From NCBI GenBank assembly GCA_017396025.1, contig JAFQNF010000046.1, positions 18,788 through 82,787 on the forward strand: a stretch of 64,000 bases of DNA, in the 5' to 3' direction. Positions 23,810-34,210 of the stretch are shown piece by piece. Numbering within the stretch: position 1 is the stretch's first letter; every line of letters starts with the position of its first letter. The stretch comes from a bacterium (GTDB taxonomy: Bacteria; Cyanobacteriota; Vampirovibrionia; Gastranaerophilales; Gastranaerophilaceae). The notes below the pieces were generated by a model. That model was given only the letters and a program-made list of their open reading frames with translations, ran no database searches and was not told where the DNA came from. The position numbers were made by a program, and so were the translations under genes.

Positions 23810-24775
23810 ATGTTTTGTCCACAGCCATTTGAGCAAATAGAAATATATGAAAACGGTGACGTTTATACCTGTTGCCCTAACTTTATAAATTTTTTCAGCA
23901 TTGGAAACATATACCATCAATGTTTTGATGAGATTTGGAATGGAGAAAAAGCACTTAACTTTAGAAAAAAGATTTTATCAGGCGATTTTTCACTTTGCAG
24001 TAATAATTGCAATCGTAAAACTTGTTTAAATGAACAAAAAGATTATTTAAACGAAAAAGTAACAATGTATCCAAGAGAAATTGCCGTTAGTTCTGATAAA
24101 TCTTGCAATGTTCAATGCAAAATATGCAGGGACAAACTGATAAATATTAAGCATAACGAGAACAATATTAAGGAAGAAATAGAAAAATATTGGCTACCAA
24201 TATTTAAAGATGCCCAAATTATAAGATTTGGTTGCACTGGCGAGCCGTTTTTCTCTGTCAAAGAAAAATTAATGATAAAAATGGTTGCAGATTCATATCA
24301 AAAGGCAAAATTTGATTTTCACACAAATGGCATACTCGGAAATGAAGTTCTTCTAAAAGAATTAAATGTATATAGTAGAATACGAGAAATTACAGTTAGT
24401 GTACACGCAGCTACGGAAAAAACATACAATTCTATAGTAAATGCCGGAAACTATAAAAAAGTTTTGGAAAATTTAAATTTATATTCAAAAATGAAAAAAA
24501 ATAATTTACTACACAGATTTCGTTTAATTTTTGTTGTTATGTCGTACAACTACAACGAAATGGTTGACTTTGCAAAACTATCACAAGAATTGGGTGCAGA
24601 TGTTGAATTTTGGGCATACCGCAAAAATGATACAATGCTATCTAACATTTATAATGAAGTATCAGTTGTAGAAAAAAGCAATCCGTCACACAACGATTTA
24701 CTGAAAATATTAGAAAATCCAATATTTGACAGTCAAAATGTTACTTTATACCCAGAATTAAAGAACTTACGCTAA
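23810..24775 (+). CDS. Radical SAM enzyme with an N-terminal SPASM/twitch-like Cys module (paralog 2 of 3)
   Basis: MFCPQPFEQIEIYENGDVYTCCPNF...SIGNIY...EIWNG...SLCSNNCNRKTC, then CNVQCKIC, TGEPF, TNGIL and ITVSVHAAT. Confidence 0.75.
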   Translation: MFCPQPFEQIEIYENGDVYTCCPNFINFFSIGNIYHQCFDEIWNGEKALNFRKKILSGDFSLCSNNCNRKTCLNEQKDYLNEKVTMYPREIAVSSDKSCNVQCKICRDKLINIKHNENNIKEEIEKYWLPIFKDAQIIRFGCTGEPFFSVKEKLMIKMVADSYQKAKFDFHTNGILGNEVLLKELNVYSRIREITVSVHAATEKTYNSIVNAGNYKKVLENLNLYSKMKKNNLLHRFRLIFVVMSYNYNEMVDFAKLSQELGADVEFWAYRKNDTMLSNIYNEVSVVEKSNPSHNDLLKILENPIFDSQNVTLYPELKNLR

Positions 24776-25489
24776 ATCATCCTGAATGTTTTCATCAATT
24801 TGCATTTGAACAGCTTTAATATCAGCATTGGCATCTATTGTAACAACCTTTTCTCCGTAGTAGTTTACTAAAGTATCCTTAACTCCATTGTAAACATCAA
24901 TTCTTGTTTTTAACTTATCAACAGTATCATCTTCTCTACTTTGATGCTTTGCTCTAGATGTCATTCTTTCAATTAGTTTATCTTCGTCAACCACAAGCTG
25001 AATAACTTTAATTTTCGCATTTTCTTTAGAATTTAATTCATCAATCATTTGTGCTTGTTCTTCGGTTCTTGGGAAACCGTCCAAAATATAACCATTTTGG
25101 CAATCTTCTTGAGAAATTCTATCCACTAAAATTCTGCCAAACAGTTCTGTTGGCACAAGTTTTCCATTATTCATATATTCTCGCGCTTCAAGCCCCAATT
25201 TAGTTTCATTTTTTACTTCTTCTCTCAACAAATCACCAGTTGAAATATGCGCAATATTCAATTTTTTAGCAAGTTTTTGTGCTTGAGTCCCCTTTCCACT
25301 AGCTGGCGGACCAAGAAAAATATAAATCGTTTTTTCTTTTAATCTGGATTCTTTATTCTTATCTTGAACCTTTCCACTAAAAGAAAAAGTATCAGCTTTT
25401 AATGGGCTTAACATTCCACTTCTTTGGAAAGAATAATTATTTTTATAATTGTTCACACGAAAACCACTTGTAACTTTTGAAATAAACAT
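24767..25489 (-). CDS. adk: Adenylate kinase with an N-terminal extension of about 53 aa
   Basis: Core starts IYIFLGPPASGKGTQ at about aa 55, with typical Adk motifs (GDLLR, GFPRT, R..DD). No Met lies near the P-loop, so the extension (or at least the part from M26) is encoded. The extension carries ADTFSFSGK. Confidence 0.9.
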   Translation of the reverse strand: MFISKVTSGFRVNNYKNNYSFQRSGMLSPLKADTFSFSGKVQDKNKESRLKEKTIYIFLGPPASGKGTQAQKLAKKLNIAHISTGDLLREEVKNETKLGLEAREYMNNGKLVPTELFGRILVDRISQEDCQNGYILDGFPRTEEQAQMIDELNSKENAKIKVIQLVVDEDKLIERMTSRAKHQSREDDTVDKLKTRIDVYNGVKDTLVNYYGEKVVTIDANADIKAVQMQIDENIQDDLA

Positions 25490-25669
25490 AAAACACTCCT
25501 AAACTACCTAATTACTATAATAAATTTAGCTGTATATAGCAAATATTATGATAAAAAATGTAAAGTTAAGTAGAAAAAGAGTAAACAATTCATTAAAATG
25601 AAAATACTCAAATTAAATTTTGTACAAAAAACCACTCAAATAAAATTTTACATAAAAGGAGACAAAGTT

Positions 25670-26038
25670 ATGAAATGCTTCAACCATCATGATAGAGATG
25701 CTTTTGGGATTGACATAATCACTGGAAAAGGACTTTGTTTAGAATGTCTTGAAGAGAACAAGGGTTTTATAATAGAAAAAAATAGCAAAATTTCAAAATT
25801 AGCCTCACAACATCTCGCTCGATTATATAAAAGTTCTGACCCACAAAATCTACTCAAAATATTTAAATATATTATGTTAACTAGCTCAGCACTATATTTT
25901 ACTCTTGCTGGTTATGAATACTTTGTAAAATCAGATATATATAAATGTTTAGATGATTTTATTCTTGGTTGTGTAGCGTTAGCTGCACTCTTTATTGTTT
26001 TTTCTTTTAGCAAAATTTTAAAAAGGGAAGGAAAATAA
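25670..26038 (+). CDS. Zn-ribbon/B-box-like membrane protein (tandem paralog 1)
   Basis: I prefer the start MKCFNHHDRDAF at 25670 (AAGGAG upstream). It has a C..HH...C..C N-terminal motif and two predicted TM helices. Confidence 0.55.
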   Translation: MKCFNHHDRDAFGIDIITGKGLCLECLEENKGFIIEKNSKISKLASQHLARLYKSSDPQNLLKIFKYIMLTSSALYFTLAGYEYFVKSDIYKCLDDFILGCVALAALFIVFSFSKILKREGK

Positions 26039-26415
26039 TGAAATGTTTTAATCATCACGATAGAGATGCTTTTAGCATTGATCCAATTACAGGCAAAGGC
26101 CTTTGCGTAGAATGTCTTGAAGATTGGCAAGGGCACTTAATTGAAAAAAGTAATAAAACATCACGAAATGGAGTACAATACAAAATCAAAGCAATAAAAT
26201 ATAGTAAAATGCTTACATTAAGTAGTATATTATTTGGCTTATTTGCAGGTGCCCATTTTTTCTATTTATTTGTATGCTTTTATTTCTTTACAGAAGAAAA
26301 AACGATATATGGATCTTTTATTTCTCTATTAGGTACAGTCACTATGTTTTATTTCTTAATTGATGCAATAAAATACGGTTATTTACAGATAAAAAACAAA
26401 ACTACTCGTTTGTAG
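26038..26415 (+). CDS. Zn-ribbon/B-box-like membrane protein (tandem paralog 2)
   Basis: MKCFNHHDRDAFSIDPITGKGLCVECLED is near-identical to the N-terminus of paralog 1, followed by two TM helices. The last 7 codons lie within the left 20-nt direct repeat. Confidence 0.6.
   Translation: MKCFNHHDRDAFSIDPITGKGLCVECLEDWQGHLIEKSNKTSRNGVQYKIKAIKYSKMLTLSSILFGLFAGAHFFYLFVCFYFFTEEKTIYGSFISLLGTVTMFYFLIDAIKYGYLQIKNKTTRL
26391..26410 (+). repeat. Left copy of a perfect 20-nt direct repeat (putative attL core)
   Basis: AAAAAACAAAACTACTCGTT, identical to 33061-33080. Confidence 0.8.
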
Positions 26416-26420
26416 AAAAT

Positions 26421-26471
26421 CTGGCAATTTCATAGCAAATGTAATTGAAAATTAATCGCTAGAATGTTTGA
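26421..26471 (+). repeat. Imperfect direct repeat, left arm copy
   Basis: CTGGCAATTTCATAGCAAATGTAATTGAAAATTAATCGCTAGAATGTTTGA aligns with 32974-33027 at roughly 70 percent identity by eye. Confidence 0.5.
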
Positions 26472-26520
26472 TTTGTTTGAACTTGAGGCTAACTTCCCGC
26501 AGTACCATAGCAAAATTTTA

Positions 26521-26602
26521 TTTTTGCCACTTTTGCCGAATTCTTGCCAAAGTTTTTGCCGTTTTTTCAGTTGTCCTTGTTGCATTTTGGCGATTTTTGG
26601 CT
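26521..26602 (+). repeat. Helically phased T-tract/GCC motif array
   Basis: TTGCC at 26524, 26533, 26544 and 26556, then TTGGC at 26587 and 26597. Spacing is 9-12 nt. The segment is locally more GC-rich than its surroundings. Confidence 0.5.
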
Positions 26603-26662
26603 TGAGCTTTGAGAGATATTAAAGGAAATTACGGTTAAAGATAGCAATTAAGCACGCTATTT

Positions 26663-27223
26663 TTATGTTATTTCATCAATTTTTTTTATTATAATTTCAT
26701 CAACAACTTTAAAAGCCTCTCGTAATGTCATATGTTTGTCATTTGTTGTGAGTAAGTCGTCGTTACTGATAATTGTAATATCTGTAAAATATTGCATAAT
26801 ATCAGCTATTGAATAAATTGCTTGGTTAATACGTTTTCTTCCTTCAAAATTAAAGGGAACAGTAACAATTATTTCTGTATTAATTCCCATATCTTTTGCG
26901 ATTTTTGCTATTACAGGTGTAGCTCCAGAACCTGTTCCGCCACCTAAACAACTATAAAGAATTAATGTTTCTGTATCATTAATAAGTTCTTTAATTTGGT
27001 CTTTTGCAAGTTCTGCCCAAGCTTTTCCTTTATTAGGATTGCCACCTGCACAATGACCGTCATCTCCAATTATTAATTTTTTATCAGCGAGGCTTAATTC
27101 CATCAATTTCTCGTCGCTGCCAATTGAAATAAGTTCATAGTTGCTAATATGGCTTTCTTTTAATGTTTTTGTAATTCTGATAGCACCTGAACCAACAGTA
27201 ACTATTTTAATTTTCTTTTTCAT
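26663..27223 (-). CDS. Stand-alone FtsZ/tubulin GTPase domain (no C-terminal domain)
   Basis: 186 aa. Tubulin signature GGGTGSG, AGGNPNKG (T3), VTVPFNFEGRKR (T5) and ISNDDLL (T6). It is collinear with E. coli FtsZ residues of about 10-200 and ends at helix H7, before the T7 loop. The T1 loop is degenerate (GSGAIR instead of GGGGGN). Confidence 0.75.
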   Translation of the reverse strand: MKKKIKIVTVGSGAIRITKTLKESHISNYELISIGSDEKLMELSLADKKLIIGDDGHCAGGNPNKGKAWAELAKDQIKELINDTETLILYSCLGGGTGSGATPVIAKIAKDMGINTEIIVTVPFNFEGRKRINQAIYSIADIMQYFTDITIISNDDLLTTNDKHMTLREAFKVVDEIIIKKIDEIT

Positions 27224-27303
27224 GAGTTATCCTCCAATTTTTTATTATAATTTGAGAATAATGCATGAACATGTCAGTTATGGACGCAACTAATAAAAAA
27301 TAT

Positions 27304-28083
27304 CTATTTTATTTCGTAAATGTATTTTTCACGAGTTGTATCTACATTTATATTTTGAAGCGTTACCTTTTTTTTATCATTTAAAACTTTTTTTCTAGCT
27401 AAAAGATGATATGGTTTTTCATTTATTTCGTGAAAAAATGTTTTAAATTGGCAATTAGAGTAGTGGCTTTTAATTAAATTAATTATTGTTCTTTCATCAA
27501 AATCATTGTTTCCAAATGCAAGAACAAAGTCTTTTGATATTTTTGTTTCAAGATATTTTTTTATAAAAGATATATTATCTTCTTTTTCATAATTTGTTGG
27601 GATTTTTTCTTCGTTACTTAAAATCCTTTTCAGTTCATTAGGGCAATGATGTCTGTATGAATATAAGTTAATGACAGCAAAATATTTAAATCCAACATTT
27701 TCTTCATTATTACAAACCATTGTTGCCCACTTCCTCGCTCTATTCATTGTGGGGTCAGATTCGTTTGAAGATGCATACGATGGATTTAACATTATATAAG
27801 TTAAAATTCCTTTTCGTGTCTTATAAAAATTGTCGTTAGTTATTTCTTCAATATAAAAATATCTTGAACAAGGAATATTCTGCATGTTTTCATAAATATT
27901 TTTTAGACACTTTTCATTTTTATAGGCTTTGAATAATTTCTCTTTTTCTTTTTTTTTATATTTTTCTTTTGAAAAAATAATAAAACCTTTAATTTGTTTT
28001 TCTATATCTTTTATTTCATATTTTTTTGGTTCAAGTTTTTCTTCTATTATACCTTTTATTGTATTTATATCCTCTATTTCCAA
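27304..28083 (-). CDS. DUF1643-like protein with a K/E-rich N-terminal extension
   Basis: LTYIMLNPSYASSNESDPTMNRARKWA...YFAVINLYSYRHHCPNEL matches the DUF1643 layout as I recall it (mlNPS.a....DpT.rrc..fa......v.NLfa.r...p..l). It lies upstream of, and co-oriented with, the mini-FtsZ gene. Confidence 0.5.
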   Translation of the reverse strand: MEIEDINTIKGIIEEKLEPKKYEIKDIEKQIKGFIIFSKEKYKKKEKEKLFKAYKNEKCLKNIYENMQNIPCSRYFYIEEITNDNFYKTRKGILTYIMLNPSYASSNESDPTMNRARKWATMVCNNEENVGFKYFAVINLYSYRHHCPNELKRILSNEEKIPTNYEKEDNISFIKKYLETKISKDFVLAFGNNDFDERTIINLIKSHYSNCQFKTFFHEINEKPYHLLARKKVLNDKKKVTLQNINVDTTREKYIYEIK

Positions 28084-28236
28084 AATTAAAATCCTTTGTT
28101 TAAAAATTCTTTATCAATAATACTTTCTTAATTATATTTGTTTCTTCTTAAAATTCAAATTAATTTAATCTTTGTTATTGTATGTCCATATGTGACGCAT
28201 ATTTGTTCTATTGTTTATATAGGAGAACTAATCTTA

Positions 28237-29450
28237 TGAAATTAGAACAAATAAAAAATTGCAAAGACGAATATTGTACACAATTTACATTTAATCTTAT
28301 AAAAATATTAAAAAAAGAGTGTAATCTCCCAAATAATGTGAGACTTTTTTGTTTATCGTATAGAAATTTAGTTTATTATTTCTTTTATAAAAATATTGTT
28401 TTTGCTGTATCTGGAATTACCGTTGAAAACAAAAAAGAAATTAAAAATATCGATTGTATCTATAAAATTATTCTATTAAAAAATACGCCAATTTCTGTGG
28501 ATGATATTGAAGTTGAAGTAGTAAAGTCTAATTCTGATAATAAATATTCACTAGAAAATTTTTTAGATTTTTTAAATAGTCCTTCAAATATAACCGAAGA
28601 CATTGATTTGCCCTATTATAAAATCATATATTTATTTCATCAGATAAATAGAACTAGATTTGAATATGGTGATTTCGTTTTTTATATAAAGCGTGATAAT
28701 GACTACTCTCTTTATTTAAATCTTTATGCTAAAAATAAAAAAAATAATAATATTGTAAAATTATATCTTCCATATATTTGGGAAAGAGATGAAAAAACTT
28801 TTCTTTTTTATAAAAAGATACCAACTAACTTAAGAAAAATATATGTGGATGATTTTTCTAAAAATTTATCTGATTATCAAAAGAGAAAATTTAAAACAAG
28901 TCTTCTAAAATTTATACAAGAAGAAAATAAATTTTTTAATATTAAAAATTTTTATGTAATTTATTTAATAAAACAAATTATTCAACCTGTTGAATTTGAT
29001 ACAGGATGGATGGCACTTCGTATTTTTCGTTCATGTTCTGAGTTTTCGAATATATGGGTTGATGACTTTTTATCTTACGGTAATAAACCTTATTTCTTAA
29101 TTGCAAATAGTAGCAATGTATACGACATTACTAAAATCGCTATTATTGACTTTAAAGAACCCAAATATGTTACTAAAGATATATATAAACAAAATCTTAT
29201 CAAATTTCTTCATTGGGAACTTTCAAAGGATTATTTAAAAAAGTTAGTTGAATTTTTAAAACAACCATATAATGGGTGGGATTCTCTTTCTATAAAAAAT
29301 GGAGTAAAAACAAATTGGCAAAAATTAATATTTAAATATAACTTTAATACTGTTCTTGCTTGTGATTTGGAAAATAAAAACGCCATATTGGACTATGAAA
29401 TTTTGCCATTAGATTTACCAATTCCTGATTATACAAAATTATTGAATTAA
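28237..29450 (+). CDS. Orphan protein (island operon gene 1)
   Basis: I prefer the start MKLEQIKN at 28237 (TAGGAG upstream); the track ORF starts at 28182. About 404 aa, K/N/Y-rich, with no motif I recognise. Confidence 0.5.
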
Positions 29451-29472
29451 TATAAAAACATAGGAATGGATT

Positions 29473-30000
29473 ATGAAAAATAAAAATAAACAAAAAAATA
29501 ATACAGAATTTAATCAAGATGAAATTATAGAAATGGATAAGCGTGCTGCATTAATTGGAAAAGCAGATACATATTCTTCAGAAGAAATATTGAAAGAATT
29601 TGGTTATTTTAGCTTGAAAGATGAACTAGTCAAAACTCATTTATTTAATGCTGAGAATAATGAAACTCCAGAAGAAACTGAAAGTTTTTTTCTAACACCA
29701 TTGAAGCAAGATGAAATAGGGCTTCCAATGTGTGTGCATCTTCGATGTATACCAAATAAAGGAGAACCTCCTTTTTTACGTTTTCAAAATGATAGAAATA
29801 ATACATTGAACAGTAATTGGGTAAAAATCTATATTGATGGTCAAATCGACAATTATGAAAACAAAAAATTAGTTTTTACACAGTCCGAATTAAATGATTT
29901 AAAAGATTGGATAAATTTAAATAAAGAAGTCATAACAAAACATTATTATAAAGTTTATAGTTCGTTGGAAGTTTGTCACAAGTTAAGAAAATTCAAGTAA
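29473..30000 (+). CDS. Orphan protein (island operon gene 2)
   Basis: 175 aa, 22 nt after gene 1. No confident family assignment. Confidence 0.5.
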   Translation: MKNKNKQKNNTEFNQDEIIEMDKRAALIGKADTYSSEEILKEFGYFSLKDELVKTHLFNAENNETPEETESFFLTPLKQDEIGLPMCVHLRCIPNKGEPPFLRFQNDRNNTLNSNWVKIYIDGQIDNYENKKLVFTQSELNDLKDWINLNKEVITKHYYKVYSSLEVCHKLRKFK

Positions 30001-30033
30001 GAATATTTAAGAAAAATTATAAGGAGCAAAACA

Positions 30034-30381
30034 ATGACAAAAGAAGAAAACAAAAAACGAATGTATTTTCACGGCGAATGTGTAATTGCTGAAATTACAA
30101 AATTACCTAAAAATCTCAAGGCTAGAAATGACAAAGATTCTATAATGATTGCTGAGTCAGAAACAGTCGGCAATGAACATAGAATTAGAGTCAAAGAAGG
30201 TGTTGAATTTTATGAAGATGCACACGGGATTCTGTATATGAAAAATACTGTTCCAACAGAGGTTTATTGCTTACACGCAGAACGCCACGATACAATCACT
30301 CTTCCCGAAGGACTCTGGCAAATCGACAAAGCTCAAGAGTATGATTATTTAACTGCAAAAATTGTATATGTTGCAGATTAA
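30034..30381 (+). CDS. Small phage-type beta-rich protein (island operon gene 3)
   Basis: 115 aa with AAGGAG upstream. FHGECVIAEITKLPKNLK...MIAESETVGNEHRI...LHAERHDTITLPEGLWQIDKAQEYD matches a small protein family common in phages (GDVll..v..lP.....vLA.GE.TGH.H.....H.eH..i.lp.G.y.v..QrEy). This is from memory only. Confidence 0.5.
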   Translation: MTKEENKKRMYFHGECVIAEITKLPKNLKARNDKDSIMIAESETVGNEHRIRVKEGVEFYEDAHGILYMKNTVPTEVYCLHAERHDTITLPEGLWQIDKAQEYDYLTAKIVYVAD

Positions 30382-30397
30382 GGAGAGTTTATTTACA

Positions 30398-31678
30398 ATG
30401 ACAATTCCAAATGTTTATATAATTAAATCGGATAATGTTGACGAGATTGTAAATGAACTAAAACTCTACAGGCATAAATGTCAATTTTCTATTGTTGAGT
30501 CAAATAGTGCAAAAGATCTTCTTGCACAAATTGGTATTCTAGAAGAAGACAAGAAAATTTTTCAAGATTTAAATAAGCGCCATTCCCAAATAATTACAGA
30601 AAACTATAACAAAGCAGTTGAAAATATCAGATACAATAAAAAAATTGAACAAAGAATGGCGATAAAAAAATACATTGATTCTATTTTAATGGATGACACA
30701 AGACAATTATATGATGATCAAATCAAAGCACTTTGTAATGAATTTTATTTTGAATTTATTTATTCAAATAAAAAATTGTGTACACAGTTACCAAAACCCA
30801 ATATAAAAATTTTAAATTATTTTGATAAAGACATTCTAAAATCTTTACTTACAACTAATGCTTATAAAAAAGTTTTTAATAATTATTTTAAAAAAACATT
30901 TAAATATATAAAAAGACCACCTTATGAAGAAATATATTTCCCTTATTATGACCGTTTTGAGAATTGTGATAATGGGGTTTTGAATTATTATTCAAGTTTT
31001 GGTGGTGTTTTTCAAGCTCCGGAAGGATATTATAATCTATATTTTGGCGATTTCAGAGAAATTGATTCTAAATGTGAAATATTTCTTAATTGGTATAAAA
31101 AAGCTTTTAATGTACTTGCAATGTTTTATAACGAAAACAATAACACTATTTATGTTATAAAGCGTCCCCCAAAAGGCTGTTTTACGATGGCAGAAAATGG
31201 TGATATTACCATTATTTCTGAGAATAAAAAACAATTTATTAAAGGTCATTTATCATTTGACTATATAGTTAGAACCCCTGCAGAAGAGTTAGATATCAAA
31301 GACTATGCATCAATAAGAAATGCAGATGCAAAGGCTAAATTTGTCGAGAAAGTTGGATTTGAGAAATTATTTAAATTTGGCATTTTAATTGATACTTATG
31401 AAAATTATCCGGAAAATGAAATGTGGGCAAAATCCGAATATAAAATTATCGATATGCATAAAATTATTCCTCCGAGAAGAAAACAAAGCCAAGTTGGCGC
31501 CAGTATGGGCATTGCAGAGCGTTTTTCATACGCCCCATTTTTATACATGAAAAACCAAACAACAGGTGTTTATCATTTGGAAGGCTTGCACCCACGTTGC
31601 AAAACTCTCTATGATGCACTCAAAATGCGTTATAACGGTTTAAACATCAAAGATTATGACATTAAAGATATTAAATAG
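30398..31678 (+). CDS. Orphan protein, C-terminal half possibly DUF6745-like (island operon gene 4)
   Basis: I prefer the start MTIPNVYIIK at 30398 (AAGGAGAG about 11 nt upstream). The C-terminal IRNADAKAKFVEKVGFEKLF...FLYMKNQTTGVYHLEGLHPRCKTLYDALKMRYNG resembles a domain with the pattern NaevRr..iErvG.erf ... v.N.t..dG......l.Vp....a.eAvAwt. Low certainty. Confidence 0.45.
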   Translation: MTIPNVYIIKSDNVDEIVNELKLYRHKCQFSIVESNSAKDLLAQIGILEEDKKIFQDLNKRHSQIITENYNKAVENIRYNKKIEQRMAIKKYIDSILMDDTRQLYDDQIKALCNEFYFEFIYSNKKLCTQLPKPNIKILNYFDKDILKSLLTTNAYKKVFNNYFKKTFKYIKRPPYEEIYFPYYDRFENCDNGVLNYYSSFGGVFQAPEGYYNLYFGDFREIDSKCEIFLNWYKKAFNVLAMFYNENNNTIYVIKRPPKGCFTMAENGDITIISENKKQFIKGHLSFDYIVRTPAEELDIKDYASIRNADAKAKFVEKVGFEKLFKFGILIDTYENYPENEMWAKSEYKIIDMHKIIPPRRKQSQVGASMGIAERFSYAPFLYMKNQTTGVYHLEGLHPRCKTLYDALKMRYNGLNIKDYDIKDIK

Positions 31679-31727
31679 TTTATAACTATTTTAAAATAAA
31701 ATATAATTATATAGAAAGTGATAAGTA

Positions 31728-32960
31728 ATGAATAATAATTTTGCTGATTTTTCTTGTGTAAGAATGGATGAACAAAACCCAAAATGGGAACACTCTATTT
31801 CTCGTGAAATTGAAATATATAAAAAAGATTATGATATAAGAAACCCATTTGAACGTGATTTACATAGACTTACTCACTCAAATGGTTATAGAAGATTAAA
31901 GAATAAAACACAAGTATTCTTTGCACCACAAAATGACCATATTTGTACAAGAATAGAACATGTTACACATGTTTCTTTAGTTGCTGAAACTATTGCAAGA
32001 TATTTAAGATTAAATACTGATTTAGTACGAGCAATAGCGACAGGTCACGATATAGGGCACGCACCTTTTGGACATCAAGGCGAAACTATTCTTAATGAGA
32101 TAGCTAAAAAATACGAGCTAAAAAAATTCTGGCACGAAGGAAACAGCTTACATTTTATTGATAATATTGAAACTCTACCAGACTATCAAGGTTATCAAAG
32201 AAACTTAGATTTAAGTTATGCAGTTCGTGATGGAATAGTTTGTCATTGTGGAGAAGTCGATGATAAAATTCTTTTACCGCGCAATTCAGAAAGAATTTTA
32301 AGTGAAATTAAAAGAGAAGAAAAAGAATGTGCATTTACATATGAGGGTTGTGTTGTAAAAATTTCAGATAAGATTGGTTATATTGGTCGTGATATTGAAG
32401 ATGCACTATCTTATGGCATATTGTCCGAATATCAAATACAAGAATTAGAAGATATTATTCAAAATACATACAAAGATTTAAAATTAACTGAAATAAATAC
32501 AACAGTTTTAATGCATAAATTCATCATAGACTTGTGCGAAAATTCATCACCAGAATTGGGTTTGTGTTTTTCTGATGATTGCTTTAAAGCATTGCTAAGA
32601 ATTAAAAAGTTTAATTATGAAAATATCTACAACCACTCAAGGCTATTACCATTTAAAAACTATGCAAGACTTATCATAAATACAATTTTTGATAAACTTG
32701 ATGAACTCTATGGAATAAATTTAGTTTTAAATTTTAAAAAAGAAAAAAACTTTTTCCCTGAGCTAATTAAACATTTTGAAGATTGGTTAATAAAATATTC
32801 AAACTATGATTTAGAAAAGAAAAAAGAACTTAAATTAGAAAATAAAATTGTTTATAACTTAGAAGAACAAGACGAATATCGAAAAGCTATTATAGACTTT
32901 ATTTCAGGAATGAGTGATAACTTCGCCATTGCAACATTTAACGAAATAATTAGTTTTTAA
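31728..32960 (+). CDS. dGTPase-like HD-domain triphosphohydrolase (island operon gene 5)
   Basis: RDLHRLTHSNGYRRLKNKTQVF, TRIEHVTHVS, GHDIGHAPFGHQGE and the C-terminal DFISGMSDNFA are all typical of the Dgt/dGTPase-like family. Confidence 0.85.
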   Translation: MNNNFADFSCVRMDEQNPKWEHSISREIEIYKKDYDIRNPFERDLHRLTHSNGYRRLKNKTQVFFAPQNDHICTRIEHVTHVSLVAETIARYLRLNTDLVRAIATGHDIGHAPFGHQGETILNEIAKKYELKKFWHEGNSLHFIDNIETLPDYQGYQRNLDLSYAVRDGIVCHCGEVDDKILLPRNSERILSEIKREEKECAFTYEGCVVKISDKIGYIGRDIEDALSYGILSEYQIQELEDIIQNTYKDLKLTEINTTVLMHKFIIDLCENSSPELGLCFSDDCFKALLRIKKFNYENIYNHSRLLPFKNYARLIINTIFDKLDELYGINLVLNFKKEKNFFPELIKHFEDWLIKYSNYDLEKKKELKLENKIVYNLEEQDEYRKAIIDFISGMSDNFAIATFNEIISF

Positions 32961-32973
32961 GCAAATTTAGAGC

Positions 32974-33027
32974 CTGTAGCGATTCCATAGAAAATGAATT
33001 GCAAACCCTTGCTATGAAACTGTTTGA
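32974..33027 (+). repeat. Imperfect direct repeat, right arm copy
   Basis: CTGTAGCGATTCCATAGAAAATGAATTGCAAACCCTTGCTATGAAACTGTTTGA aligns with 26421-26471. Confidence 0.5.
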
Positions 33028-33060
33028 CACTTTTTATAAAACTGCAAGACTGTTGTTAAC

Positions 33061-33080
33061 AAAAAACAAAACTACTCGTT
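33061..33080 (+). repeat. Right copy of the perfect 20-nt direct repeat (putative attR core)
   Basis: AAAAAACAAAACTACTCGTT, identical to 26391-26410. Confidence 0.8.
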
Positions 33081-33100
33081 AAAATACAACAACGAAACAA

Positions 33101-33148
33101 AAAAGAGAGCCTTTCGACTCTCTTTTATTAATCTGGGGCGGAAGGATT
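33101..33148 (-). repeat. Duplicated tRNA-Gln 3' fragment plus terminator (copy A)
   Basis: AAAAGAGAGCCTTTCGACTCTCTTTTATTAATCTGGGGCGGAAGGATT is near-identical to 33288-33336. It contains the last 16 nt of tRNA-Gln and a GAGAGTC-GAAA-GGCTCTC terminator hairpin (minus-strand sense). Confidence 0.8.
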
Positions 33149-33285
33149 GTCTTGAATTTGCTCCACGCTCACAGAGTATCGCCTTTGTGGCTTTGCCACA
33201 GTCGGCTTTTTCTGTTCGCTATCCGGCATAAATGCCGTACGCAAATCCGCTCGAACCTCCTTCTCCGATTCTCTTCCTTCCGCAT
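33149..33285 (-). other. GC-rich spacer between the two tRNA-3'/terminator copies (integration scar or structured RNA)
   Basis: It contains GGAGGTTCGA (minus sense, 33251-33260), which is the 5' half of the tRNA-Gln T-arm. Hairpins at 33186-33200 and 33224-33237. An 8-bp inverted repeat, GCGGAAGG (33138-33145) / CCTTCCGC (33276-33283), brackets it. Confidence 0.4.
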
Positions 33286-33321
33286 AAAAAAAGAGAGCCT
33301 TTCGACTCTCATTTTATTATT

Positions 33322-33394
33322 CTGGGGCGGAAGGATTCGAACCTCCGAGATGCCTGGACCAAAACCAGGTGCCTTACCACTTGGCGACGCCCCA
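33322..33394 (-). tRNA. tRNA-Gln (anticodon UUG)
   Basis: Minus-strand TGGGGCGTCGCCAAGTGGTAAGGCACCTGGTTTTGGTCCAGGCATCTCGGAGGTTCGAATCCTTCCGCCCCAG folds as a cloverleaf. Acceptor is TGGGGCG/CGCCCCA, the anticodon stem is CCTGG/CCAGG with loop TTTTGGT, and the T-arm is GGAGG-TTCGAAT-CCTTC. It is near-collinear with E. coli tRNA-Gln. No CCA is encoded. A GAAA-tetraloop terminator follows (33286-33310). Confidence 0.92.
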
Positions 33395-33422
33395 ATAAGG
33401 CTGTCTGTCTCTCGACTCTTAT

Positions 33423-33451
33423 ATATTATTAAGACCATACACAAAAGTCAA
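33423..33451 (-). promoter_or_regulatory. Near-consensus promoter for tRNA-Gln
   Basis: Minus sense: TTGACT (33446-33451), a 17 nt spacer, then TAATAT (33423-33428), about 28 nt upstream of the tRNA 5' end. Confidence 0.5.
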
Positions 33452-33538
33452 GAGATTTTTTAAATTTTTCTATACTTTTAATTATTTTTATGGCTTAATT
33501 AGTATAAACATACACGACACAAAAAAAGGAAATTAAAT

Positions 33539-34195
33539 ATGCAAGCAAGACGTGCTGCCAGAGAATTAGCTTTAATATTATTTTCTCAAATGGATACAAT
33601 AGAAAACCTTAACAAATGGGATTTTCAAGATATAGTTCTGAAATCAGTTAGAACACTCACAAACAATTCCGCTGACGAATTAAAAGCTGCTTCAGCTGCA
33701 ATTATGGAAATGAAAGAATACATTGAAGAATACGAAGCAAATCATCCAAAAAATTTGGAAAGACCAATTGATGTTTCAAATGTGCCAGTTCCAATGCCAA
33801 TGACATCAGATATGCAAGGCAGATTAGATGATTTATTAAATATTGCAGAAAAAACAATGTTGGCTCTAGAAATTGCTGAAATGGCAACTTTAGAAGAGAA
33901 TTCTGATGTAAAAGAATACATTGTTAAAATTGCAAATGCCTTCAAGGCAAATAAAAATACAATCGATGAACAAATTAAAAAATTCGCTTTCGGTTGGGAT
34001 ATCAATCGTTTAGTTAAAATGGATAAAGATATTCTAAGAATTGCAATCTGCGAACTTTTATATGTTCAAGATGCACCTTTAAAAGTTATTATTGATGAAG
34101 CCCTAGAATTAGCTAAAAAATACTCAACAGACGATTCTGCTGCATTTGTTAACGGCATTTTAGGCAAAGTGGTTATTGAAAATAACTTAAAATAA
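33539..34195 (+). CDS. nusB: Transcription antitermination factor NusB (long form)
   Basis: N-terminal RRAARELALILFSQ and C-terminal ILRIAICELLY...P..V.IDEALELAKKY......FVNGILG. At 218 aa it has an internal insertion compared with the roughly 140 aa typical NusB. Confidence 0.85.
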   Translation: MQARRAARELALILFSQMDTIENLNKWDFQDIVLKSVRTLTNNSADELKAASAAIMEMKEYIEEYEANHPKNLERPIDVSNVPVPMPMTSDMQGRLDDLLNIAEKTMLALEIAEMATLEENSDVKEYIVKIANAFKANKNTIDEQIKKFAFGWDINRLVKMDKDILRIAICELLYVQDAPLKVIIDEALELAKKYSTDDSAAFVNGILGKVVIENNLK

Positions 34196-34210
34196 ACTTA
34201 GGATTAATCA

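Follow-up and report, generated by a model that had tools for sequence, protein, structure and literature searches.

A strain-variable island of a Gastranaerophilales bacterium carrying a dGTPase-family gene and a phage-type gene pair

The five genes and the island that carries them

The window, by which we mean the whole 64,000-nucleotide (nt) stretch of contig JAFQNF010000046.1 from a bacterium of the Gastranaerophilales, contains a run of five co-directional open reading frames (ORFs) on the + strand, g1 to g5, which encode proteins of 404, 175, 115, 426 and 410 amino acids (aa) and are separated by gaps of 22, 33, 16 and 49 nt. An earlier interpretation made from the letters alone (the sequence-only reading) proposed that these genes form a novel defence system, in which g1 to g4 sense infection or regulate g5, an enzyme resembling deoxyguanosine triphosphate (dGTP) triphosphohydrolases (dGTPases). 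The results of the present analysis indicate that the five genes lie in an island with sharply defined borders, and that g5 and the g3-g4 pair are found apart from one another outside the species. The relatives of the window are metagenome-assembled genomes labelled Candidatus Gastranaerophilales or Melainabacteria; loci and contigs from these and other genomes are given L numbers below. The five genes and the island borders are as follows.

28236..29450, + strand: g1, an orphan of 404 aa; a gene of about 20% guanine plus cytosine (GC) with no match in four hidden Markov model (HMM) libraries or among Protein Data Bank (PDB) sequences
29473..30000, + strand: g2, 175 aa, specific to Gastranaerophilales elements; homologues in related elements, no Pfam family
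30034..30381, + strand: g3, 115 aa, all-beta in the model; the small partner of the DUF6745 pair
30398..31678, + strand: g4, 426 aa; C-terminal half (residues 239-418, nt 31112-31651) DUF6745-like
31728..32960, + strand: g5, 410 aa, an HD-domain triphosphohydrolase of deoxynucleoside triphosphates (dNTPs) or dGTP; catalytic H...HD...D residues intact
26391..26410, no strand: left copy of the 20-base-pair (bp) direct repeat AAAAAACAAAACTACTCGTT, within the final codons of the gene targeted by the insertion (26038-26415, encoding a 125-aa membrane protein)
33061..33080, no strand: right copy of the 20-bp direct repeat
26411..33080, no strand: strain-variable island, 6,670 bp including one repeat copy, delimited by blastn against an empty-site contig

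The five closely spaced genes are real, as the gene callers of independent metagenome assemblies returned the same five calls on other contigs of the species. The gene span given by the sequence-only reading also stands, except that the ATG of g1, which follows AGGAG, is at 28236 and not at 28237. Its suggestion of a Shine-Dalgarno-like site before each gene agrees with what is seen at g1 to g4 (AGGAG, AGGAA or AAGGAG, 8-13 nt upstream), while the site of g5 is weaker. No terminator-like site was found between the genes from g1 to g5, and one lies inside g2; a promoter-like TTTATA-17-TATAAT is present at 31679-31707, in the 49-nt gap before g5. It was likewise correct that g5 alone has a recognisable family. 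Direct HMM scans of Pfam, PADLOC, NCBIfam and PHROGs gave no significant match for g1 to g4, only weak PHROG matches (g3 to phrog_27831 at E 0.0073, the others at E 0.04 or worse), and PDB sequence searches returned nothing for g1, g2, g3, a broad g3 profile or a g4 profile. The ratio of nonsynonymous to synonymous substitutions within the species was uninformative, the sequences being more than 99% identical.

The genes had been described as embedded in a mobile island, and this can now be set to the base. We located empty-site contigs through contigs that encode an identical NusB protein, and found the empty site in same-species contigs of four independent samples (L039, L040, L044 and L045). 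In these, the membrane-protein gene is one codon shorter and is followed directly by a tRNA-Gln gene and nusB. The alignment of L039 with the window by blastn runs over 25433-26410 and then 33061-34204, and the overlap is exactly the 20-nt repeat. The single repeat copy of the empty sites is exact in L045 and carries one mismatch in L039, L040 and L044; in the window both copies are perfect, the right one starting 100 nt past the g5 stop. Positions 26411-33080 are therefore a precise presence/absence polymorphism. The island contains seven genes, the five of the + strand and two on the - strand that encode an FtsZ-like protein and a DUF1643 protein. Its GC content is 0.20-0.30, against about 0.30 outside; the window as a whole is at about 30%, and the g1 region at 20%. 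No recombinase homologue was found in the island or anywhere in the window, no primase or helicase in the island, and no Pfam or PHROG match to structural, packaging or lysis genes in the island.

Distribution of g5 and of the g3-g4 pair

The proposal of one five-gene system is not supported, as the genes are scattered or independent in other genomes. The order of the five is not conserved elsewhere; only g3 and g4, often with g2, travel together, and g5 and g1 do not, so that the co-occurrence and synteny in unrelated genomes by which a multi-gene system is recognised are not seen for g1 to g5. We collected 25 cellular loci, 21 through an alignment search with g4 relatives in species-representative genomes and four annotated ones through two further look-ups. 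A g3 homologue (46-90% identity) adjoins the g4 homologue in 24 of these, always on the same strand. By comparison, g2 is found in 13, g1 in one plus a fragment in another, and a dGTPase gene in none; the viral loci described below likewise lack g5. Conversely, none of the 31 loci with g5 relatives (44-75% identity) contains g3-g4. The sequence-only reading had left room for independent systems, and this fallback is the one that we favour, as g5 and g3-g4 are never together outside the species. Within the species, a 2.2-kilobase (kb) contig, L133, has g1 truncated to 163 aa and joined to g5, with g2 to g4 missing; its g5 protein is 100% identical to that of the window and is preceded by a different upstream segment of about 90 nt. 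The pair has spread by horizontal transfer, as the g4 loci extend to genomes of a Methanobacteriaceae archaeon, a member of the Clostridia and one of the Muribaculaceae.

The identity of g3 is 66-92% across 25 homologues (clusters), with 43 invariant positions, which across genera argues for strong purifying selection. Its conserved motifs are LHGE(C/A), ADSETTGNHH, C..ERHD and a C-terminal EYD...V.D. In the broad family of 54 members G14, E43, G46, H49, H85, V113 and the C-terminal D115 are invariant, and H13, E15, C79, R84, E102 and D104 nearly so; the pattern suggests a metal or catalytic site. The AlphaFold2 model of g3 (predicted local distance difference test, pLDDT, 80) is an all-beta fold of 12 strands, for which Foldseek returned no PDB entry below E 0.1. 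The family is absent from Pfam, and a pooled scan of weak matches of the 54 members gave no consistent family. A homologue in L037 matches phrog_27831 at 7.7e-10 over the whole profile, and the membership of g3 itself would hold transitively, through the family alignments. The described resemblance of g3 to a small phage-borne beta protein is thus upheld by the model, by phrog_27831 through the homologue and by 50 viral loci from IMG/VR. In one relative the g3 frame extends to 755 aa (L018:9608-11875, compared with L017:9608-9952), with about 1.9 kb extra after residue 108 and no significant Pfam match in the extension, which could be an insertion or an assembly artefact.

The relatives of g4 form about 100 clusters, some of which carry PF20530 (DUF6745). 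The N-terminal half of g4 (residues 1 to about 235) is the less conserved one and is mostly helical in the model; in some paralogues WG_beta_rep repeats take its place. A Pfam scan gave no direct match of g4 to PF20530 at E up to 1. Relatives in L029, L031, L036 and L037 match PF20530 at 1e-9 to 1e-20, and hhalign of the g4 family against a PF20530 protein gave a probability of 99.9% over g4 residues 239-418. The g4 model (pLDDT 77) matches the DUF6745 protein of the cultured Microcystis phage Ma-LMM01 in Foldseek at E 1.9e-7. The low-certainty assignment of the C-terminal half to DUF6745 is hence confirmed. The remote-homology and structure searches that had been recommended succeeded for this half of g4; they gave no PDB fold for g4 (Foldseek, none below E 0.1) and no PDB sequence match for g1 or g2.

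The same pair is common in viruses. Our viral set comprises 52 loci, 50 from IMG/VR retrieved with a broadened g3 alignment and two that duplicate L048 and L051. A DUF6745-like ORF is present in 46 of the 52 loci found through g3, on the same strand in every case and within 300 nt in 37, and the usual order is DUF6745 followed by g3. Among cultured phages, tblastn gave no match to g3 or to the C-terminal half of g4; with a query more typical of the family it recovered the pair in Ma-LMM01. There it consists of gp175 and gp174, between the genes for DNA polymerase (gp178) and uracil-DNA glycosylase (gp173), in a block assigned by a transcriptome study to the middle expression class, that of DNA replication/repair (PMC5780444). 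In a T7-like contig the pair is just upstream of a single-subunit RNA polymerase gene, with genes for a single-stranded DNA-binding protein and a primase-helicase further on. Other phage neighbours are varied and include RecT, YqaJ, PD-(D/E)XK nucleases, a methylase, PP-loop ATPases and many proteins without annotation. A third constant partner was looked for in phages and none was found, and no structural-protein family is among those listed for the 87 ORFs (about 100 aa or more) nearest the phage pairs. The sequence-only reading had held that homology to structural phage proteins would point to a decayed prophage. The phage part of this applies, since g3 and g4 are phage and mobile-element genes; yet they are non-structural and belong to early or DNA-replication regions. 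In the literature library that was searched, no paper mentions DUF6745.

In contrast to its neighbours, g5 is readily classified. It matches Pfam HD (2.9e-09) and HD_assoc (5e-11) and the PADLOC dGTPase model (8.8e-52), and passes TIGR01353 marginally (153.0 bits, cut-off 152.35). Among PDB entries g5 scores best against the dNTPase of Thermus thermophilus, 2dqb (1.3e-31), in whose alignment TRIEH, GHDIGH and SDKIGY...D of g5 stand against TRLTH, SHDLGH and SDAIAY...D of the Thermus enzyme; the dGTPase-like Vibrio protein Vdg (9vwa) is matched at E 3.8e-19 over g5 residues 21-251. The dGTPase-like label of the sequence-only reading is thus sound. We considered whether g5 is the chromosomal dgt next to nusB and ruled this out, as empty-site strains lack g5 at the locus; because it lies inside the island, g5 is accessory in the species and is not a resident dgt here. 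Relatives at 69% identity are immediately downstream of a short FtsZ-like gene with a DUF1643 gene nearby (L100, L101 and L103). Two of these are among defence-type genes. L100 also has a g2 homologue, a WYL-type (WCX) regulator, all the genes of a type I restriction-modification system and, downstream, a UvrD/PD-(D/E)XK helicase-nuclease, and in L103 a UvrD/PD-(D/E)XK helicase-nuclease is upstream of the g5 relative. The absence of g5 from empty-site strains and the defence-type surroundings of these relatives are what one looks for in an accessory gene in a defence context.

The first two genes are of narrower distribution. An exhaustive HMMER search of 1.84 billion cluster representatives found only 57 in the g1 family. 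No Pfam domain was found in nine members scanned, which included two longer forms, and the extra C-terminal parts of these two had no match among the sequences to hand. Elsewhere g1 is found only in L022, plus the fragment in L027. Besides its truncation in L133, it is split by a small indel in L010; g1 is a lineage-restricted orphan that is dispensable in some strains. By comparison, g2, g3 and g4 are unbroken wherever an island-bearing contig covers them, apart from the deletion variant L133. In the g2 of the window, the C-terminal end of a 98-aa protein (g2b) is fused to a 135-aa domain (g2a). Homologues with 52-67% identity are situated between a serine recombinase gene and g3 in L014-L016 and L032, and that of L100 occurs with the dGTPase gene and without g3-g4. 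A pooled scan of weak matches of 11 family members gave no consistent Pfam family; a single match to DUF4160 (E 0.15) was dropped.

Related elements and flanking features

The modules of the island recur in related Gastranaerophilales loci as a string of genes: a short FtsZ-like gene, DUF2924, in some cases a WG-repeat protein, a large serine recombinase, g2 (often duplicated), g3, g4 and a WG-repeat protein with a DUF6745 C-terminus. The part from DUF2924, with or without the WG repeat, through the serine recombinase to g2-g3-g4 is present in L014-L016 and L032-L033; in L014-L016 the serine recombinase, g2, g3 and g4 are consecutive, with gaps of about 10-25 nt. Variants of the string lack g2 (L013) or have other genes between g2 and g3 (L017/L018 and L034/L035). 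Around it are genes for a DnaB-like helicase, a DnaG-type primase, a reverse transcriptase, Phage_Mu_F, GH108, a helix-turn-helix protein and DUF1643, as well as DarT/NADAR, GmrSD and a WYL-type (WCX) regulator. These loci are integrative elements that combine a replication module with a varying cargo of defence type, and together they point to a hitherto undescribed family of such defence-carrying elements in gut Melainabacteria. The island of the window is a subset of the element genes (FtsZ-like, DUF1643, g1, g2, g3 and g4) plus the dGTPase gene. A literature search found no paper on mobile elements or serine recombinases of Gastranaerophilales. We also observed that the variable cargo of L032-L035 and L100 includes GmrSD, DarT with NADAR, type I restriction-modification, the UvrD/PD-(D/E)XK helicase-nuclease, a reverse transcriptase and the WYL-type (WCX) regulator, and that this regulator is 65-70% identical between genomes.

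The remaining genes of the island and the neighbouring tRNA gene are the following.

26663..27223, - strand: FtsZ/tubulin-like protein of 186 aa, N-terminal GTP-binding domain only
27304..28083, - strand: DUF1643 protein of 259 aa (Pfam PF07799, 2.6e-12; phrog_3230, 2e-13)
33321..33395, - strand: tRNA-Gln (UUG), separated from the right border of the island by 240 nt

The FtsZ-like protein matches Pfam Tubulin at 2.7e-26 (profile 1-187 of 190) and NCBIfam ftsZ over 17-203 of 353, and by eye against Escherichia coli FtsZ it stops immediately ahead of the T7 loop site. Proteins of this short FtsZ/tubulin-like type, 180-220 aa long, recur in the window and in L012, L017, L022, L032, L034, L100 and L103. 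They are often encoded twice per element, with 25-40% identity, and head modules in Gastranaerophilales integrative elements; in L100 and L103 such a gene is directly upstream of the dGTPase gene. We speculate that an FtsZ-like subunit without the T7 loop caps FtsZ filaments and so blocks cell division, or else that it serves as a GTP sensor. The DUF1643 gene is also found in L012, L032, L100 and L103.

The insertion is in the last codons of the second of two tandem paralogous genes for small proteins (25598-26038 and 26038-26415, + strand), which share a 102-nt stretch of 79% identity. By eye, both proteins start with a Cys-rich, zinc-ribbon-like part (CFNHHDRDAF…C.EC), and their C-terminal halves are hydrophobic and probably membrane-spanning. 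Further to the left, an adenylate kinase gene (24767-25489, - strand) encodes a protein of 240 aa in which, at the N-terminus, about 60 extra residues precede the P-loop GPPASGKG.

The tRNA-Gln region is itself a hotspot of strain variation. We considered the 3' end of tRNA-Gln as the attachment site of the island and rejected it, because this end is repeated just 188 bp away and is not the island border. The repeat in question is a 51-bp direct repeat (33099-33148 and 33287-33337) made up of the last 17 nt of tRNA-Gln and a terminator hairpin. It brackets a 137-nt segment that is missing in strains L002, L132, L133 and L136. A related element has a counterpart of this segment (79% identity) immediately past its g4-type genes, at L032:13021-13126. 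The unit 33127-33290 (- strand) folds well (-56 kcal/mol, z -4.35), and its ends pair in the manner of an acceptor stem; it gave no credible Rfam match and no ARAGORN call, and it may be a small mobile RNA gene or the remnant of an attachment site. In another contig of the species (L042:1-592) an unrelated gene replaces the sequence beside tRNA-Gln. The N-terminus of its product (GDLFEEFV, YGVDGVY, YQVKFR) resembles by eye the N-terminal domain of restriction/helicase nucleases, with no Pfam match; if the resemblance holds, the flank of tRNA-Gln would be a hotspot for variable genes.

Interpretation and comparison with known systems

The explanation that we favour, with a probability of about 0.7, is that of a mosaic, recombinase-less island resembling the staphylococcal cassette chromosome (SCC) and carrying at least two independent functional units. 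Its observed parts are the build of the island and its borders, the existence of empty sites, the frequency of the g3-g4 pairing and the independent occurrence of g5. The 6.67-kb island, inserted next to tRNA-Gln at the 3' end of the gene for a small membrane protein, carries g1 to g5 as its + strand cargo, and its modules recur, in other combinations, in integrative elements of related bacteria that carry a large serine recombinase. The biochemical roles, all of which we infer, would be divided between two units. The first would be g5, a stand-alone dNTP/dGTP triphosphohydrolase that most likely acts alone by dNTP hydrolysis and, being accessory, may limit phage DNA synthesis. The second would be g2-g3-g4, with the putatively obligate pair of g3 and a DUF6745-domain protein, common to many phages, as its core. 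The two proteins probably act together. Of the two, g3 would be the conserved component and, given its invariant His, Glu and Asp residues, probably the one that binds a metal, catalyses a reaction or recognises the target; the DUF6745 protein would be its partner with an exchangeable N-terminal domain, which is helical here and consists of WG repeats in others. Because of its early or replication-associated position in lytic phages and its fixed site after the recombinase gene, the pair is likely to serve the mobile element, in DNA replication or repair, in establishment or in counter-defence, and not in host defence.

Several points weigh against this explanation. On contigs of the species the order of g1 to g5 is constant and the gaps are short; together with the lack of an intergenic terminator, this means that the five genes may be co-transcribed and may interact within the species. 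No biochemical function can be assigned to g1 to g4, which match no PDB sequence or fold and no Pfam family. The cellular loci were retrieved through g4 and are silent on how often elements lack the pair. The deletion variant is a single 2.2-kb contig. Serine recombinases are putative makers of the 20-bp repeats, and it is from context that we infer an element-serving role of the pair over a host-serving one. As for g5, it scores below the curated antiphage cut-offs (NF041026, 111.3 bits against 400; PRK05318, 99.2 against 383), its best NCBIfam matches are dNTPase models not named antiphage (PRK01286-type), and its closest relative outside the species (75%, L098) is among ordinary metabolic genes. 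Given this context and the failure of the antiphage models, g5 could be a plain dNTP-pool enzyme.

An alternative that we consider possible, if doubtful, follows from these last points, namely that g5 is a housekeeping-type enzyme of the dNTP pool that merely rides on the island and has no role in immunity. The PRK01286-type models, the Thermus dNTPase, the metabolic surroundings of the 75% relative and the failed curated antiphage_dGTPase model all speak for it. Against it, g5 is absent from the empty-site strains of the same species; its 69% relatives are beside mobile-element genes, in L100 also beside restriction-modification genes; and the PADLOC dGTPase match is accompanied by one to Vdg, which protects against phage. 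On balance we lean towards g5 being an immune gene, a reading that draws on sequence and context. The other alternatives concern g1 to g4. That these sense infection or regulate the dGTPase effector in a single five-component defence system is what the co-directional, tightly spaced arrangement, its constancy within the species and the location in a variable island would suggest, and dGTPase domains do serve as effectors in multi-domain immune proteins (PMC13519002). Nevertheless, the set does not co-occur outside the species, L133 keeps an intact g5 without g2 to g4, g3 and g4 are widespread in lytic phages without an adjacent dGTPase gene, and g1 is disrupted in some strains. We regard this explanation as very improbable, and its removal disposes of a tempting false lead.

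Two separate defence systems would be another way to read the island, with the dGTPase beside a g2-g3-g4 module of anti-phage, abortive-infection or toxin-antitoxin-like exclusion type, in which the DUF6745 protein is the sensor and g3 the effector. The presence of GmrSD, DarT/NADAR, type I restriction-modification, WYL-type regulator and reverse transcriptase genes near related loci is consistent with this, a variable N-terminal on a constant C-terminal domain is a pattern of sensors, and defence genes are common on mobile elements and prophages. We nonetheless think it unlikely, as the pair is common in viral contigs, in a T7-like phage and in the lytic Ma-LMM01 among early or replication genes, its fixed place after the recombinase gene looks like backbone rather than cargo, no PADLOC match was found for g2 to g4, and conservation is much stronger in the small protein than in the large one, whereas we would expect the opposite of a toxin-antitoxin pair. 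It is improbable, too, that g1 to g4 are inert leftovers of a decayed integrative element or prophage, with g5 or nothing at all functional. The island does lack a recombinase, a primase and a helicase, its g2 is a fusion of two ancestral genes, and the very AT-rich g1 is broken in some strains; against this stand the integrity of g2 to g4 in all spanning island-bearing contigs except L133, the strong purifying selection on g3 and the Shine-Dalgarno sites on all genes.

The mosaic island with independent units thus remains our preferred explanation, and it yields an island of exactly known borders for which an uncultured gut lineage offers natural variants, both empty sites and a deletion. What could be truly new in it is the pair of g3 and DUF6745 and, secondarily, the FtsZ-like proteins that consist of the N-terminal domain only. 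The pair is conserved in dozens of phage contigs and in a cultured cyanophage, and no homologue of either partner has a solved structure. Time and again, phage gene pairs conserved in this way have proved to be counter-defence or DNA-modification systems. We suggest, at slightly less than even odds, that the g3-like beta protein and DUF6745 are an undescribed, obligate two-protein module of lytic phages, serine-recombinase elements and bacterial and archaeal islands. It would have a new fold or activity, maybe that of a metal-dependent enzyme acting on DNA, nucleotides or a conserved host target in the replication or establishment of the element, counter-defence included, and gut Melainabacteria would have gained g2 and the fixed position after the recombinase.

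The closest counterpart of this pair is gp175-gp174 of Ma-LMM01 (phrog_27831 and phrog_31813), which belongs to the same two families; as with g3-g4, the two genes adjoin on one strand, and their order is also that of g3-g4. In contrast, identity is only about 25-35%, and the phage genes are inside the DNA replication/repair module of a lytic myovirus. Phage defence by nucleotide depletion through a stand-alone dGTPase was first reported by Tal et al. (bioRxiv 10.1101/2021.04.26.441389), and Vdg of Vibrio, a stand-alone dGTPase-like enzyme, protects E. coli from phage (PMC13519002). Like these enzymes, g5 is a single-domain member of the HD dGTPase family with intact catalytic residues, is accessory, and matches both the PADLOC dGTPase model and Vdg. 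Unlike them, it fails NF041026, is closer to the Thermus-type 2dqb and is known here from its sequence. As an accessory Thermus-type dNTPase, it would widen the range of nucleotide-depletion immunity if it is phage-protective. Similarly to tRNA-adjacent defence islands, the locus has a strain-variable segment beside tRNA-Gln, and relatives of the island genes are near restriction-modification, GmrSD and DarTG genes; unlike in such islands, g5 is the only member of a recognised defence family among the seven genes. Some of the related elements also have prophage-type genes (Phage_Mu_F and GH108).

The likeness to SCC concerns the island as a whole. Elements of that type have large serine recombinases, a primase and a helicase, a DUF1643 gene and restriction-type cargo, and they insert in the 3' end of a gene between direct repeats of about 18 bp (PMC10581047). 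The island described here is likewise inserted in the 3' end of a chromosomal gene, with direct repeats of roughly 18-20 bp, a DUF1643 gene and empty sites, and the related elements have large serine recombinases, a primase and a helicase, and restriction or defence cargo. In contrast to SCC, the island belongs to another phylum and uses another target gene, and the recombinases of its relatives come with DUF2924, their link to Ccr being putative. The large serine recombinase is absent from the island and is present beside g2-g3-g4 in the related loci; forms of SCC without ccr, termed pseudo-SCC, also exist. We therefore use SCC as an analogy, in which a putatively mobile island shares its manner of insertion and part of its gene content with a known class of cassettes.

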